This document shows positions 9,859 to 51,441 of a stretch of 64,000 nucleotides of DNA, piece by piece. This DNA is from a virus. Lineage: Duplodnaviria; Heunggongvirae; Uroviricota; Caudoviricetes. The notes beneath the pieces are model-generated. The model was not told the origin of the DNA and did not search any database. It saw only the letters and a list, made by a program, of their open reading frames with translations. The stretch lies in IMG/VR virus record IMGVR_UViG_2681813233_000007. One strand, written 5' to 3'. Position 1 is the stretch's first letter. Each line of letters begins with the position of its first letter. Made by a program: the position numbers and the translations under genes.

Positions 9859-10200
9859 GCTGTTTCTAAATCGGAATGTATGATCTGCATCATCGTCTGA
9901 AGTCATCCATTGCTGAAATTTTTAGTTGATCTTCCATGTTTTCAGGCTTATATTCATGCCGTCGTAGCAAATTCTGCGACCGGGTTTGACAGCCTGAATA
10001 CTTACGCGGACAACCGCACATTTCCGATATTGCGGTATTTTTGTGTCCGTAAAACCACGTTACGCCCGAATTATGGTGGGGCGTGATGGGGAGGCTTCGG
10101 CCTGCTGGTTTCGTAAGTGCCAGTCTGTCAACCCTGTCACGTCCTGCCACCTGTTTGACAGCGGGTCGCAGGTTGTTTATCAACTTACGAGGCCGTAACT

Positions 10201-10425
10201 ATGGTTAATGCCAATCCTTGCTCACGTCCAGAATTCATCTGGCGTTTCCACTCCCTGCAAAAACACTGCGATCACTTCGCAATTGCCGCAACCGAAAAAG
10301 AAGCCCGTTCTCTGATCCCTGATCAGTATGGTGTTCTTACTGGTCGTTTCTCTACTTCCCCACAACCAAACACTAATCCCTGGTATCGCAATATTACCAA
10401 TCCCGGAATTGCGGAGGCACACTGA
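10201..10425 (+). CDS. Icd-like small protein (copy 1)
   Basis: 74 aa, motif EFIWRF(H/Y)S.QKH shared with the paralog at 49445; directly upstream of the Ant-like gene as in P1 immI. Confidence 0.5.
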   Translation: MVNANPCSRPEFIWRFHSLQKHCDHFAIAATEKEARSLIPDQYGVLTGRFSTSPQPNTNPWYRNITNPGIAEAH

Positions 10426-11132
10426 TGGAAATCTGCATTCTTGAAAAGCCATCAATGACCAGCATTGAGATCGCGGAGCTGGTGGGAAGTCGCCCGGATA
10501 ACGTTAAACGCACTATTGAACGCTTGAGTAAATCAGGTGTTATTCCACTTCCTCCAATGGAGGTTTCCGAAAATATCAATAACTTAGGATTTAAAGTTAA
10601 AAATTCACACTACGTCTTCGAAGGCGAGCAAGGCAAGCGTGACAGTATCATTGTCGTTGCGCAGCTTTCTCCCGAATTCACCGCCCGGCTGGTGGACCGC
10701 TGGCGCGAACTGGAAGAACAAGTACGCCAGCCGTTGACCGAAATAGAGATGATCGCCGCAATGGCTGCAAATGCAGTTCAGCAGCAAAAGCGGCTTCATG
10801 TTGTTGAGTCAAAGGTTAGCCAGGTGGTAGAAACCGTCGAGCAAATCAAGAAGGGCAACATGCCGGAAGGCTACATTGGCTACCGCCAGCTGGCGGCGAA
10901 ATGTGGCCTGACTGAAGCCAAATGCCGAAACCTGGTCAACGCTTACCGGATTCCCACCGATACACATGAGTTTTTAACTCCAGAGGGGGTATTGTCGCGT
11001 CGTTCCATCGTGGCCTTATCTCCCTTCATGAATGCTTTTAACCGGATGATGTCGGAGGCTGAACACCGAGGAAAACGCTGGTATCACCCCAAAATGGGGC
11101 AATTCCAGGTGATCGGTTGGGGAGGTGAGTGA
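10425..11132 (+). CDS. Antirepressor-like protein (Ant/KilA-type), copy 1
   Basis: 235 aa; N-terminal MTSIEIAELVG..DNVKRTIE shared with the 313-aa paralog at 49660. Confidence 0.55.
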   Translation: MEICILEKPSMTSIEIAELVGSRPDNVKRTIERLSKSGVIPLPPMEVSENINNLGFKVKNSHYVFEGEQGKRDSIIVVAQLSPEFTARLVDRWRELEEQVRQPLTEIEMIAAMAANAVQQQKRLHVVESKVSQVVETVEQIKKGNMPEGYIGYRQLAAKCGLTEAKCRNLVNAYRIPTDTHEFLTPEGVLSRRSIVALSPFMNAFNRMMSEAEHRGKRWYHPKMGQFQVIGWGGE

Positions 11133-23265: not shown

Positions 23266-23342
23266 GATGGTGTAGCTCAGTAGGATAGAGCAGCAGCCTT
23301 CTAAGCTGTCGGTCGGTGGTTCGAATCCATCCACCATCGCCA
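23266..23342 (+). tRNA. tRNA-Arg (anticodon UCU)
   Basis: Cloverleaf by hand: acceptor GATGGTG/CACCATC, D-arm GCTC/GAGC, anticodon loop CTTCTAA, T-loop TTCGAAT, encoded CCA. Confidence 0.75.
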
Positions 23343-23344
23343 AT

Positions 23345-23417
23345 GCCGGTTTAGCTCAGTTGGTAGAGCGCCTGCCTTGTAAGCAGGATGTCAGCGGTTC
23401 GAGTCCGTTAACCGGCA
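23345..23417 (+). tRNA. tRNA-Thr (anticodon UGU)
   Basis: Acceptor GCCGGTT/AACCGGC, D-loop AGTTGGTA, anticodon loop CTTGTAA, T-loop TTCGAGT. Confidence 0.8.
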
Positions 23418-24582: not shown

Positions 24583-24658
24583 GGCCCTTTAGCTCAGTGG
24601 TTAGAGCAGGCGACTCATAATCGCACGGTCACCGGTTCAAATCCGGTAGGGGCCACCA
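24583..24658 (+). tRNA. tRNA-Ile2 type (anticodon CAU, lysidine-type AUA reader) or tRNA-Met
   Basis: Near-identical to the E. coli ileX-type sequence as I recall it; anticodon loop CTCATAA, encoded CCA. Confidence 0.8.
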
Positions 24659-48054: not shown

Positions 48055-48633
48055 ATGCAGAAACAGAGCTACTGGGAGAAACAGAGACAAAAAGCCATGC
48101 AAAGATTGGCTGACCCGGCCTGGCGAGAGGAACAAAGGGCAAAGCGCCTTCAACAAGCTCAACGCCAGCAGCAGCGAGCGAGAGAAAAAGCCGCATCGCC
48201 TGAATATCGGCAAAAGAGAATTGAAAAAGCAAAGCAATATGACCAGCGGAGAAAAGAGAAAGCTGTATCCGCTCCGTCCAAAAAAACACGCACGTCACGC
48301 GGCCTGAAGGGCAGATCACTCACAGCCGATGAACGCCGGATACAGACCGCTATCGGTACTCTCCCCTGCATTGCCTGCCATATTCACGGGCAACATAGCC
48401 CAGTGGTATCCCTGCACCATATCTTCGGGAGAACGGCAGAGAACGCGCATAAATATGTCCTCCCTTTGTGTAAATGGCACCACCAGTACGCAGCGCCAGC
48501 CGAGGTCCGAGAACAATATCCCTGGCTGGTCCCTGTTCATGCTGATGGAAAAATAGGCGGAAAAGCAGATTTCATACGGCACAATGCCGATGAAATGGCG
48601 TTGTATCAGATGGCAATTGAATTGATAAATTAG
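48055..48633 (+). CDS. ref: Ref recombination enhancement function (HNH endonuclease)
   Basis: 192 aa; C-terminal half near-identical to P1 Ref as I recall it (LPCIAC..H...VSLHHI.GRTA...PLC.WHHQ.AAPAEVRE.YPWLVPVHADG). Confidence 0.85.
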   Translation: MQKQSYWEKQRQKAMQRLADPAWREEQRAKRLQQAQRQQQRAREKAASPEYRQKRIEKAKQYDQRRKEKAVSAPSKKTRTSRGLKGRSLTADERRIQTAIGTLPCIACHIHGQHSPVVSLHHIFGRTAENAHKYVLPLCKWHHQYAAPAEVREQYPWLVPVHADGKIGGKADFIRHNADEMALYQMAIELIN

Positions 48634-48644
48634 TTTTCTAACAT
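48627..48644 (-). promoter_or_regulatory. Operator-like motif ATGTTAGAAAACTAATTT
   Basis: Identical 18-mer to 20784-20801; downstream of ref, upstream of the second icd-ant leader. Confidence 0.5.
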
Positions 48645-48965
48645 TTTAAGTTGAATTGGAAATTTCTCCGATGTACATTCACTACCGATTGGCACACCGG
48701 TCAACTTTTTGAGACAAACTGTTTAGTTTTTCGTATTATTGCCGCCGCCATACCTATGGCGGTGCAATATAGGTGGCTGAAAAGCCCCCGTTGACTCACG
48801 GTGTTCCAGCCTTTATTGCGCCGCCACCAGACCGTGGAACAGTCGATGGCGGCTCCGAAAGCAAGGAGTCACTACACTATGAACAACTACAGTCTTTTCC
48901 CATCACTCGTCGTCCACCACTCACGCGATAATCTGCATTCTTTACTCGCGCTGGGGGTGTCAAAA

Positions 48966-49133
48966 TGACTGTTCGCTACCTCAACTTTCAAATCAAGAAC
49001 ATTACTGGCGGTTGCTATGACTGGTTTGTCACTCTCGGAAAAGAAGTGATCACCGGGAAGCTGGATGAAGTGAAAGCTAAAGCAATGGCCTACGCCTGCA
49101 AGCAAGCCCGGAAAAAATCCGCCAAAGCATAAA
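48966..49133 (+). CDS. Small basic protein (55 aa, hypothetical)
   Basis: ATG with upstream GGGGGTG; below the ORF-track cutoff; 100 bp upstream of a terminator. Confidence 0.3.
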
Positions 49134-49237
49134 ATACTGACTGTTGCGCCCTGGCATTATCGTGGGGTATATTTCTACGGCACCTTAGAAAAACGGGTGC
49201 CGGGATTGGAACCCCGGATAATGTCAAAGGCGACACA

Positions 49238-49259
49238 GACGCCGAAAGCGTCTTTTTTT
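49238..49259 (+). terminator. Rho-independent terminator
   Basis: GACGC-cgaaa-GCGTC followed by TTTTTTT. Confidence 0.7.
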
Positions 49260-49444
49260 GTGTCATGCCATCGCACAGCCATACGTAGCGTTTAGCTCAG
49301 AGATCAATGGTAGTGCTGGCTGGGCTGCCGAAAGGCAGGCCGGTTCCCTTTGACGCCGGTAGTTCCAACCCAGTCAGTGCTACCGCCATTGAGATTGGAA
49401 CCTCACGCGGTAGCTCCTTAACTTAGTCAAAGGAGGCTGCCAAT

Positions 49445-49660
49445 ATGGCTACTATCCCCACCCCAACTCATTCTGAATTTATCTGGCGTTTCTATTCCTG
49501 CCAAAAACACCTCTATATCTGCGTCATGGCTGCTACCGAAGCAGAAGCGCGCTCATGCATTCCCGAAGAACCCTGCATTTTTGCTGCTCGCTTCACTCTT
49601 GATGCGATGGAGATCCTCAATTACTGGAATCTGCCGATGAACTGCGTGGAGGTGCACTGA
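49445..49660 (+). CDS. Icd-like small protein (copy 2)
   Basis: 71 aa; EFIWRFYSCQKH motif; paralog of 10201..10425. Confidence 0.5.
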   Translation: MATIPTPTHSEFIWRFYSCQKHLYICVMAATEAEARSCIPEEPCIFAARFTLDAMEILNYWNLPMNCVEVH

Positions 49661-50601
49661 TGAATCTGTCCATCTCTCAAAAAGCGACAATGACCAGTAT
49701 TGAGATCGCGGAACTGGTAGGTAAGCGTCATGATAATGTGAAGCGTACCATTGAAGTATTAACTAAAGGTGGTGTCATTCAATTTCCTCAAATTGAGGAA
49801 ATTGAAAATAAACAATCAGTTGGCCCTCGTCGATTTTCCAAGGCTTACATCTTTGAAGGCGAACAAGGCAAGCGTGACAGTATCATTGTCGTCGCACAGC
49901 TTTCTCCCGAATTTACCGCCCGGCTGGTGGACCGCTGGCGCGAACTGGAGAATGCCCGGGTACAGTTAAAATCAAAAGCCGAAATCCTAGCTGAAATGGC
50001 GCAAATGCATCTTGAGCATGAACGCCGGATCAACGCCGTTAATGCCCAGGTAGCCGAAGTATCGGCACAAGTGTCCAAAGTCGCTGAAACCGTCGAGCAA
50101 ATCAAGAAAGGCAATATGCCGGAAGGCTACATTGGCTACCGCCAGCTGGCGGCGAAATGCGGCCTGACTGAAGCCAAATGTCGCAACCTTGTCAACGCTT
50201 ACCGGATTCCCACCGATACACATGAGTTTTTGACCCCCGATGGCTTGCTTGCGCGACGCTCCATTGTGGCCCTGGCCCCCTTCCGGAAAGCCTTTAAGCA
50301 GGTGATGTCGGAGGCAGAACCACGCAATAAACGCTGGTATCATCCAAAGATGGGGATGTTTCAGGCAATCCACCATCCTGTGCCTGAAAGTCCAAAGGCA
50401 AACCTGTCGTTGCATACCGCCAGAGAGAGGATTAAAACAGGGTATGCAATCGTATGCCGTCGAGCATCTTGGCCTGAAGGTGTATGGGTATGGCCCGAAG
50501 GTGGATCACGAAAGCACTGGCGCACTATCCGGGATGGGAAAATCCATGCGATTGATTTAGCTCCAGAGGATGTTGTTGCTACGGACTGGATTGTTAGTTA
50601 A
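49660..50601 (+). CDS. Antirepressor-like protein (Ant/KilA-type), copy 2
   Basis: 313 aa; N-terminal and central blocks shared with copy 1, including near-identical nucleotide stretches. Confidence 0.55.
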   Translation: MNLSISQKATMTSIEIAELVGKRHDNVKRTIEVLTKGGVIQFPQIEEIENKQSVGPRRFSKAYIFEGEQGKRDSIIVVAQLSPEFTARLVDRWRELENARVQLKSKAEILAEMAQMHLEHERRINAVNAQVAEVSAQVSKVAETVEQIKKGNMPEGYIGYRQLAAKCGLTEAKCRNLVNAYRIPTDTHEFLTPDGLLARRSIVALAPFRKAFKQVMSEAEPRNKRWYHPKMGMFQAIHHPVPESPKANLSLHTARERIKTGYAIVCRRASWPEGVWVWPEGGSRKHWRTIRDGKIHAIDLAPEDVVATDWIVS

Positions 50602-51081: not shown

Positions 51082-51441
51082 ATGATAATCGTGGCTACTA
51101 AAATTAAACTTGAAAACCCTCAAACTGGCGAATCAATCACCGGTTTTTATGGTTTTTCCTGGACTACATTCTTGTTTGGTGCTTTTCCAGCTTTGTTCAG
51201 GAAAGACTTTATAACTTTTATTGGGGTATTCGTAGTGATGCTGATACTGGCATTCCTCACAGCCGGAATTGGCCCGTGGATTGCCTCATTTATCTGGGCG
51301 TTCATGTATAATAAATATTTCACCGTAAATAAGATAAAACAAGGCTTCATTTTTGCTGGTTCTCACACAGAAAATGAGTTGGCTGCTAGCAAGCTAGGAT
51401 TGTCATTAAATCAAAACAACTGCAAAACTATTACCGAGTAA
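51082..51441 (+). CDS. Small integral membrane protein (DUF2628-like)
   Basis: NPQTGE...GFSWTTFLFGAF...LFRK pattern with two TM helices; start may be the GTG near 51091. Confidence 0.4.
   Translation: MIIVATKIKLENPQTGESITGFYGFSWTTFLFGAFPALFRKDFITFIGVFVVMLILAFLTAGIGPWIASFIWAFMYNKYFTVNKIKQGFIFAGSHTENELAASKLGLSLNQNNCKTITE

Follow-up and report, generated by a model that had tools for sequence, protein, structure and literature searches.

The window, a 64,000-nucleotide (nt) stretch of viral DNA (Caudoviricetes; IMG/VR record IMGVR_UViG_2681813233_000007), is a D6-like, P1-family plasmid prophage, and the 811-base pair (bp) leader between its ref gene and its second copy of icd (48634–49444) is read here as two c4-type riboregulator modules placed in tandem on the + strand, module A (48627–49132) and module B (49144–49444). 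This two-module reading has a probability of about 0.8, and confidence in it is greater for module B than for module A. The sequence, the fold and RNA family matches, the complementarities and the covariation are established directly. Module B is homologous to the immI region of phage P1 and to the IsrK locus of the Salmonella prophage Gifsy-1, and is confirmed here as a device already known in kind. Module A centres on c4-A, which its sequence indicates to be a genuine, divergent c4-type regulator and which, in the lineage of the window, most likely gates the gene of a 55-amino acid (aa) protein, orf55, through a remnant leader open reading frame (ORF). Every element given in the initial annotation of this DNA is present, with small shifts in some coordinates. 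As was stated there, no long ORF lies between ref and icd; the plus strand has at most 55 aa and the minus strand at most 72 aa.

Module B is recognised by two full-length Rfam matches, both above the respective cut-offs. The Rfam search, which had been proposed in the initial annotation together with a c4-like, co-directional antisense RNA upstream of icd and ant, places a canonical C4 antisense RNA (RF01695), here called c4-B, at 49303–49390 on the + strand (77.1 bits against a cut-off of 45, model positions 1–87 of 87, E = 2.4e-13 over the whole window) and an isrK-type RNA (RF01394) at 49180–49258 on the same strand (62.7 bits against a cut-off of 50, model positions 1–77 of 77, E = 4.8e-11 over the whole window). 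c4-B is co-directional with, and upstream of, icd and a Rha-family antirepressor gene. It folds into the three-way junction of the C4 family (z = −5.0), with its a' sequence CCUUUGAC (49347–49354) in the loop of hairpin 2 and its b' sequence GUUCCAA (49362–49368) in a single-stranded segment. The isrK-type RNA combines an a1b1 element with an intrinsic terminator and consists of hairpin 1 (49180–49200), b1 UUGGAAC (49206–49212) in a hairpin loop, a1 GUCAAAGG (49223–49230) and the terminator, whose stem spans 49237–49253 with a U-run to 49259. The terminator was found independently by a terminator scan; the initial annotation had rightly described it as strong, and it belongs to the isrK match.

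The a' and b' sequences of c4-B each have one complement upstream, in isrK, and one downstream. The downstream sites are b2 UUGGAAC (49395–49401), held in a small hairpin GAG-AUUGGAAC-CUC, and a2 GUCAAAGG (49426–49433), which overlaps the Shine-Dalgarno sequence AAGGAGG of icd (49430–49436). These sites account for the direct repeat GATTGGAACC and its partial complement GTTCCAACC that had been reported earlier: the repeat is present at 49204–49213, as described, and its second copy lies at 49393–49402 rather than at 49399, the two being the target sites b1 and b2, with c4-B exactly between them, while the complement, placed before at about 49371, occupies 49362–49370 and is the b' of c4-B. Full-length RNAduplex comparisons of c4 with the leaders were uninformative, as they unfold everything, and were replaced by loop-restricted complement searches, which give complementarities of 7 + 8 nt upstream and 7 + 8 nt downstream. 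Of 200,000 shuffled leaders, 10 gave both matches in 5'-b..a-3' order, under thresholds that, for both modules, were set after the matches were seen. Missed by the initial annotation were the isrK identity of the terminator element, the a1/a'/a2 pair that would mask the icd Shine-Dalgarno sequence, and orf55 as the probable cargo of module A behind an icd-like remnant.

The comparative data are the strongest evidence for module B. The leader is 96.5% identical to that of Escherichia phage D6 and 100% identical to that of a 92.9-kb E. coli plasmid, and matches to at least a part of it occur in 359 plasmids. Within module B, D6 and the window differ at 17 of 268 positions, and 12 of the 17 are compensatory dinucleotide swaps in a1/a'/a2 and b1/b'/b2 that keep the pairing. 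The P1-like phage RCS47 differs from the window at 12 positions, six of them within b1/b'/b2 and again compensatory dinucleotide swaps. Further matched a and b specificities are found in the metagenomic relatives L007 and L133, with compensatory swaps in a1/a'/a2 in D6, L007 and L133; L007 and the first immI copy of the window also show covariation in the hairpin and terminator stems of isrK. Together with the C4 match, this three-way covariation (D6, RCS47, L007, L133) bears out the c4-like RNA that was proposed upstream of icd and ant. In sequence terms, the matched specificity changes follow the pattern of P1/P7 heteroimmunity. Although nothing in module B is new in kind, it offers a very clean natural case of specificity switching by matched dinucleotide swaps, and its specificities could serve to predict heteroimmunity among P1- and D6-like phage-plasmids.

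For both modules we infer the transcription starts, the RNA processing, the translational repression and the operator role. In module B, a candidate isrK promoter, TTGCGC-N18-TATATT (49144–49173, +), is suggested by the sequence, its −10 element ending 6 nt before the 5' end of isrK at 49180; at this position L007 has TTGAAT-N17-TATGGT and RCS47 has TTGCGC-N17-TATGCT, both better promoters than that of the window, and an isrK promoter has been shown experimentally at the equivalent place in Gifsy-1 (PMC4825925). Transcription would start at about 49180, and most transcripts would end at the terminator (49237–49259), giving a short isrK RNA with the decoy sites b1 and a1. Read-through transcripts would contain the C4 RNA (49303–49390), presumably excised by ribonuclease P (RNase P) as in P1; the CCA directly 3' of the c4-B closing stem is the sole feature in favour of such excision. 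The a' and b' of C4 would then pair with a2 (49426–49433) and b2 (49395–49401) and mask the Shine-Dalgarno sequence of icd, so that translation of icd, and with it that of the coupled antirepressor, would be blocked. Free isrK RNA would compete for a' and b' and thereby activate expression, as shown for the Salmonella homologue; Hfq binding and activation in trans of downstream translation are known only for that homologue (PMC4825925).

The order of elements in module B, all on one strand, is that of the P1/P7 immI region (a1 b1 – c4 – a2 b2 – icd – ant1/2). Shared features are the three-way-junction fold of c4, an upstream decoy and a downstream target for each of a' and b', the position of a2 on the icd ribosome-binding site and the coupling of icd with ant. 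Specificity is likewise switched by matched changes, between P1 and P7 as between the window, D6 and RCS47. Module B differs from immI in its a and b specificities, in its Rha-family antirepressor and in its upstream element, which fits isrK (63 bits) far better than c4-a1b1 (22 bits). The window also has an immI copy of its own of the P1 type (copy 1, 9948–11132), with Rfam c4-a1b1 and C4 matches, the part at 9948–10425 being of the P1/P7 immI type. A second antisense-RNA/icd region in D6-like plasmids is already in print (PMC6799933), and module B is widespread in Shiga toxin-converting and P1-like phages, with two records already annotating 'C4 antisense RNA' and 'isrK' side by side.

The second close counterpart is the isrK–STnc1160/orf45–anrP region of Gifsy-1, to which the isrK match of module B corresponds over its full length, terminator included. 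In Gifsy-1, an RNA of ~80 nt, STnc1160, was detected downstream of IsrK, and the system was compared with the seqA/CI RNA of phage P4 (PMC4825925). In module B, too, an ~80-nt C4-like RNA (the counterpart of STnc1160) lies downstream of isrK, and in both systems an antirepressor gene comes next. In the predicted fold of the module B precursor, b1–a1, in the middle of isrK, pairs in cis with the a'–b' region of c4 and the icd Shine-Dalgarno sequence is sequestered in a hairpin, an arrangement that matches the translationally silent 'structure A' of the Gifsy-1 isrK locus, which was restored there by the compensatory mutants G28/C162 and G31/C159 (PMC4825925). The two systems differ in that the window has icd between C4 and the antirepressor, that the Gifsy-1 authors treat the C4 region as a coding ORF, orf45 (PMC4825925), that the window element is a plasmid prophage whereas Gifsy-1 is an integrated lambdoid prophage, and that no AntQ-type target is known for the window element. 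The words 'phage P1' have 0 occurrences in the text of the Gifsy-1 study, where no link to P1 was found beyond the comparison of IsrK with the P4 seqA/CI RNA (PMC4825925). The CI RNA of satellite phage P4, with its seqA and seqC sites, is similar in organisation, as a processed, co-directional antisense RNA with targets upstream and downstream on the same transcript; P4 differs in that the outcome is premature termination of transcription of replication genes, not masking of the icd/ant ribosome-binding site.

The c4-a1b1 model (RF03163) reaches only 22.4 bits at 49167–49220, below its cut-off of 46.7, and overlaps the isrK match; this DNA is better described by the isrK model and still carries the b1 and a1 sites. 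The models for isrK (RF01394, no clan) and c4-a1b1 (RF03163, clan CL00128) overlap at 49167–49258 and 9948–10050 of the window and at 2697–2786 of L007 and 2191–2280 of L133. Downstream of the a1b1 hairpins, every module, the P1-type copy 1 included, has an intrinsic terminator together with a conserved UUUUGUGUC. The isrK and c4-a1b1 families appear to be descriptions of a single homologous element. This links two literatures, in that the a1b1 element of P1 and the IsrK small RNA of Gifsy-1 would belong to the same class and the Gifsy-1 orf45 overlies a C4-like RNA.

The case for module A begins with c4-A itself (48752–48831, +), which was identified from a sub-threshold match to Rfam C4, its fold, its conservation and its covariation. 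This second, divergent c4-like RNA justifies the plural in the earlier suggestion of candidate c4-like RNA(s), as it lies in the region of GCCGCCA and TGGCGG sequences in which paired hairpins had been described, around 48760 and 48810. The sequences are present (GCCGCCA at 48744–48750 and 48820–48826, TGGCGG at 48757–48762 and 48847–48852); instead of two local hairpins they contribute to a single 17-bp closing stem (48757–48773 with 48810–48826) in which the TGGCGG at 48757 pairs with the CCGCCA at 48821–48826. The remaining copies, outside the closing stem, could form competing hairpins in the precursor. Within the closing stem are hairpin 1 (48775–48786), hairpin 2 (48788–48801), with a' UUGACUC (48791–48797) in its loop, and a single-stranded b' UGUUCCA (48802–48808), and a CCA follows the closing stem at the 3' end. 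The fold has the C4 shape, with a minimum free energy of −36.2 kcal/mol (z = −4.6), and 0 of 200 shuffled sequences folded as well.

Conservation and covariation both point to the RNA. D6 and the window share an identical c4-A, and no other segment of the leader is as well conserved: c4-A has 92–96% identity to the copies in the Escherichia fergusonii and Shigella dysenteriae plasmids against 52–69% in its flanks; by segment, the upstream flank is 56–69%, the icd-like remnant 52–53% and orf55 88% identical to these plasmids. Compensatory changes are found in 13 of 22 c4-A stem pairs when B-type and copy-1 c4 RNAs are compared, and in 9 of 24 pairs among the A-type relatives. A covariance model built from A-type sequences also matches c4-B, at 43 bits. 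By the Rfam C4 model the relatives of c4-A score 36.5–39.5 bits and the L133 homologue 48.1 bits, the latter above the cut-off. On these grounds c4-A is classed as a borderline, divergent subgroup of C4, a coherent subgroup that the Rfam threshold misses. Viral contigs were also scanned with the 14-mer ACGGTGTTCCAGCC; most matches were due to chance, the c4-A RNA being present at only six of the loci listed, and at five of the six it is identical to that of the window.

Downstream of c4-A, b2 UGGAACA (48835–48841) is complementary to b', and a2 GAGUCA (48866–48871), complementary to the a' loop, overlaps the Shine-Dalgarno sequence AAGGAG (48863–48868) that serves the ATG at 48879. The complementarity amounts to 7 + 6 nt, in the same order and with the same spacing as in module B; the downstream matches were reached in 154 of 200,000 shuffled leaders. 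b2 is invariant in five aligned plasmids. The ATG opens an ORF of 29 aa (48879–48968, +), probably an icd-like remnant, whose stop codon overlaps the start of orf55 (ATGA). The same start context opens an intact Icd-like gene of 61 aa in E. fergusonii, S. dysenteriae, the Raoultella plasmid L135 and Klebsiella michiganensis L139 (phage_ICD_like, 47 bits), and ~160 nt are absent from the window and D6 at this gene, leaving the 29-aa ORF. The E. fergusonii and S. dysenteriae plasmids, which are D6-like, have c4-A, the 61-aa Icd-like gene and the 55-aa ORF with no module B behind them, and in some plasmids the remnant is fused in frame to the 55-aa ORF, giving proteins of 83–85 aa. With the E. 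fergusonii Icd-like protein as query, only one viral contig was found.

More distant relatives of module A were reached through the homologues of orf55 and supply independent covariation. In S. dysenteriae a' is GUGACUC with a2 GAGUCAC, in Raoultella L135 a' is GGCUCC with a2 GGAGCC, and in K. michiganensis L139 a' GUUGACUCCG matches a2 CGGAGUCAAC over 10 nt and b' GUUCCGGC matches b2 GCCGGAAC over 8 nt. In all three, the icd-like gene has a2 on its Shine-Dalgarno sequence. The tandem layout of the window recurs in L133, with a c4-A-type RNA, an orf55 homologue (45% identity), isrK, C4 and icd.

Upstream of c4-A, a degenerate a1/b1-like element (48684–48705, +) contains a hairpin ACCG-AUUGGCACA-CGGU and has only imperfect matches, a b1-like UGGCACACC (48690–48698) with one mismatch to b' and an a1-like GUCAAC (48700–48705) of 6 nt. 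The plasmids of E. fergusonii and S. dysenteriae show no conservation of this element, whereas a clear a1b1 element precedes the A-type c4 in L133. GAGACAA (48711) was considered as an a1 decoy of c4-A and ruled out, since L135 and L139 show no covariation between it and a'; for this reason, and for its fixed 17-nt spacing to TATNAT, it is better read as a −35 element. Cross-talk of c4-A to the a2/b2 sites of module B (6 + 6 nt in the window) was likewise rejected as a conserved feature, because D6, with an identical c4-A, has a changed a2 in module B and L133 has no such match.

Taken as a mechanism, module A would be a divergent, older copy of the module B device. A promoter beside an operator-like site would drive c4-A, whose loops would pair with b2 (48835–48841) and with the Shine-Dalgarno sequence (48866–48871) of the 29-aa remnant ORF; as this ORF is translationally coupled to orf55 (ATGA), the role of c4-A would be to gate orf55 and not an antirepressor. 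No antirepressor is present in module A in any lineage examined, the next gene being orf55. Compared with P1/P7 immI, module A thus differs in having no antirepressor, a remnant icd only, a sub-threshold c4, an a' pairing of 6 nt and a proposed gating of a 55-aa protein, and it suggests that a c4 device can control cargo other than an antirepressor.

Several points weigh against this account. At 40.2 bits (E = 7e-6 for a search space of 1.3 kb), c4-A falls short of the Rfam C4 gathering threshold of 45, its a' loop pairs over no more than 6 nt in the window, and a scan with the Rfam c4-a1b1 and isrK models gave no match at the degenerate a1/b1 element of module A. In L133, a2/b2 sites are absent downstream of the c4-A homologue, and therefore A-type RNAs can persist without an a2/b2 target. 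To these are added the post hoc thresholds of the shuffle tests and, for the mechanism, the difference in emphasis between the P1 model (a processed c4 acting as a repressor in trans) and the Gifsy-1 model (a cis-folded leader activated by IsrK), either of which may dominate.

The low score, the degenerate upstream element and the L133 RNA without downstream targets also favour a rival explanation in which only module B is active and c4-A is a relic in decay, left by an old immI-like unit from which icd was lost and which either never had or has lost its antirepressor; its conservation would be due to recent shared ancestry or to some other constraint, for instance promoter or terminator context. 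The truncation of the icd-like gene behind c4-A to 29 aa in the window fits this explanation, as does the identity of the window-type c4-A in five viral contigs, which therefore carry little independent information. Decay is at odds with the degree of conservation of c4-A, far higher than that of its flanks and higher than that of the coding orf55 across plasmids that are 52–88% identical elsewhere, and with substitutions in c4-A that preserve or improve pairing. Moreover, b2, the a2/Shine-Dalgarno sequence and the start codon have stayed intact through the deletions, the coupling to orf55 has been retained, and a'/a2 and b'/b2 covary in three further lineages. A relic is on balance unlikely, and an active module A is preferred.

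A second rival accepts the antisense RNAs and places their main output in transcription termination, as in satellite phage P4: pairing of c4 with b1/a1 beside the isrK terminator, and with b2/a2, would decide whether the polymerase stops, and occlusion of the ribosome-binding site would be secondary. The two outputs are not mutually exclusive. b1/a1 lies directly upstream of a strong intrinsic terminator in all modules, copy 1 included, which speaks for termination, and a2 overlaps the Shine-Dalgarno sequence in every module and lineage examined, which speaks for translation. In P1, furthermore, the reduced transcription of ant is a consequence of blocked icd translation, through Rho polarity, which counts against termination as the primary output. 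The Gifsy-1 work points both ways: its authors raised termination for STnc1160 and likened the system to the P4 CI RNA with seqA/seqC, and IsrK increased a transcriptional fusion 8-fold, but IsrK supplied in trans raised translation 139-fold, far above the transcriptional effect, and constitutive STnc1160 did not act as a termination factor (PMC4825925). Control at the ribosome-binding site is accordingly preferred, and termination as the main output is judged improbable.

The weakest rival, that the 39-aa ORF over C4 (49307–49426) is translated like the Gifsy-1 orf45 and that the downstream ribosome-binding site is opened by its translation instead of by a processed antisense RNA, draws on the lowered activation of anrP by orf45 start-codon mutations and on the start of orf45 at nt 107 or 120 of the isrK transcript, over the c4-like RNA (PMC4825925), as well as on the end of the 39-aa ORF 18 nt before the icd start codon and its match to Pfam Phage_ASH, but is very unlikely in view of the full-length, high-scoring C4 match with RNA-like variation (compensatory stem changes and loop–target swaps), an ATG at 49307 that is buried in the closing stem and lacks a convincing Shine-Dalgarno sequence, the presence in the window, between C4 and ant, of icd as a gene apart whose Shine-Dalgarno sequence is itself masked, and, from a review of the Gifsy-1 work, an orf45 that is conserved in nucleotide sequence and variable in amino acids.

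The annotation of coding sequences over these RNAs is a related matter. An 'ash family protein' called by the NCBI annotation pipeline (Pfam Phage_ASH, 32 bits) sits exactly on c4-B (49307–49426, +), at the same position as the Gifsy-1 orf45, and in the D6 record a minus-strand ORF, D6_84 (L001 3457–3756), spans isrK and C4. We take the Phage_ASH family to derive from the P4 CI region. The 'ash family protein' ORF and D6_84 are probably spurious coding sequences over non-coding RNA, and so, probably, are 'ash family protein' calls on C4 RNAs in general.

orf55 (48965–49132, +) had been noticed before as a short basic ORF; it is indeed present, its start and end being one base off the positions then given (48966 and 49133). 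Its codon-position bias and its family of homologues mark it as a real, conserved gene: 13 of the 21 differences fall in the third codon position, and against E. fergusonii there are 11 synonymous and six non-synonymous codon changes. The family is small, comprising proteins of 48–58 aa that are encoded nearly always beside ref in D6-like elements, and among 1.84 billion representatives a profile search recovered just a few small homologues, none of them annotated. An AlphaFold2 model (pLDDT, the predicted local distance difference test, of 83) has four strands and a C-terminal helix. No significant match was found to orf55 in Pfam or NCBIfam, and no Foldseek match in PDB or BFVD.

A wider, tentative proposal, possible yet doubtful at this stage, is that D6-like phage-plasmids hold a distinct c4-A subgroup that might have been retained to gate this ~55-aa protein (motif TGGCYDW), always next to ref. 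c4-type riboregulators would then not be tied to antirepressors, and two orthogonal antisense specificities would act in series, c4-A being fixed and isrK/C4/icd/ant being under diversifying selection for heteroimmunity. If this were true, orf55 would be a new small effector of the lysis–lysogeny decision or of superinfection control. The core of the finding is a known system; the novelty is modest and concerns the sub-threshold c4-A subgroup, its association with orf55 and the tandem of one fixed and one rapidly diversifying specificity.

The promoter region of module A has two candidate sites. The first (48651–48679, +) has a −35 element TTGAAT (48651–48656), a 17-nt spacer and a −10 element TACATT (48674–48679), with transcription expected to start near 48686. 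This putative promoter scored below the 9-of-12 threshold of the promoter scan; its hexamers and spacing are kept in six lineages while the surrounding sequence is only 56–69% identical. The second (48711–48739, +), from the promoter scan, is a promoter-like GAGACA with a 17-nt spacer and TATTAT, and (G/A)AGACA-N17-TATNAT recurs as a conserved block in the window, E. fergusonii, S. dysenteriae, L135 and L139.

An operator-like motif, AAATTAGTTTTCTAACA (48627–48643, +), lies 7 nt upstream of the −35 element of the leader promoter. This operator–promoter arrangement is also found in L007, L133, L135 and L139 and in the E. fergusonii and S. dysenteriae plasmids. The motif belongs to an asymmetric 17-bp sequence, AAATTAATTTTCTAACA, with 12 sites in the window at ≤3 mismatches against 0.33 expected (8635, 9842, 20785, 26094, 30527, 31937, 43498/43511, 47977, 48627 and 60268/60281, including two overlapping inverted pairs), some of the copies preceding ref, immI copy 1 and the present leader. 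The 17-mer is probably the D6-type counterpart of the scattered C1 operators of P1, and would accordingly bind a repressor. The P1 C1 operator itself was ruled out, as no site in the window is within 3 mismatches of its consensus ATTGCTCTAATAAATTT and the other 17-mer is repeated instead. In RCS47 (L003) the isrK–C4–icd–ant cassette is located between pacB and c1 and is preceded by a P1-type C1 operator-like TTGCTCTAATAAATT (L003 2412–2430) instead of the D6-type 17-mer, which suggests that the cassette moves from one phage-plasmid backbone to another, acquiring the operator of the local repressor.

The genes that flank the leader are, on its left, ref (48055–48633), which encodes a Ref-family nuclease (Pfam RecA_dep_nuc, 119 bits), and, on its right, the icd-like gene regulated by module B (49445–49660, +; NCBIfam phage_ICD_like, 47 bits) and the Rha-family antirepressor gene ant (49660–50601, +; Pfam Phage_pRha, E = 3.4e-9). 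The icd stop and the ant start share one base (49660, TGATG).

Among the relatives, the Raoultella plasmid has its icd-like gene and orf55 homologue separated by a membrane-like ORF of 120 aa (L135 1601–1963) that is similar to a 119-aa ORF of the window (51082–51441), with the shared motif ITGFYGFSWTT...PALFRKDF. Some E. coli D6-like plasmids (L008/L009 2672–4361) have an IS605-family element, with TnpB and a Y1 transposase, at the 3' end of the orf55 homologue, where the insertion changes the C-terminus (the 62-aa variant P0014) and occupies the position that module B has in the window. Plasmid pSa1423-90k (L006 2494–3300) was excluded from inference because, compared with all the other records, it has numerous single-base indels in orf55, isrK and C4, which suggests sequencing errors or decay. 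Elsewhere in the window, three tRNA genes are present on the + strand (23266–23339, 23345–23417 and 24583–24655; Rfam tRNA, 68–75 bits).

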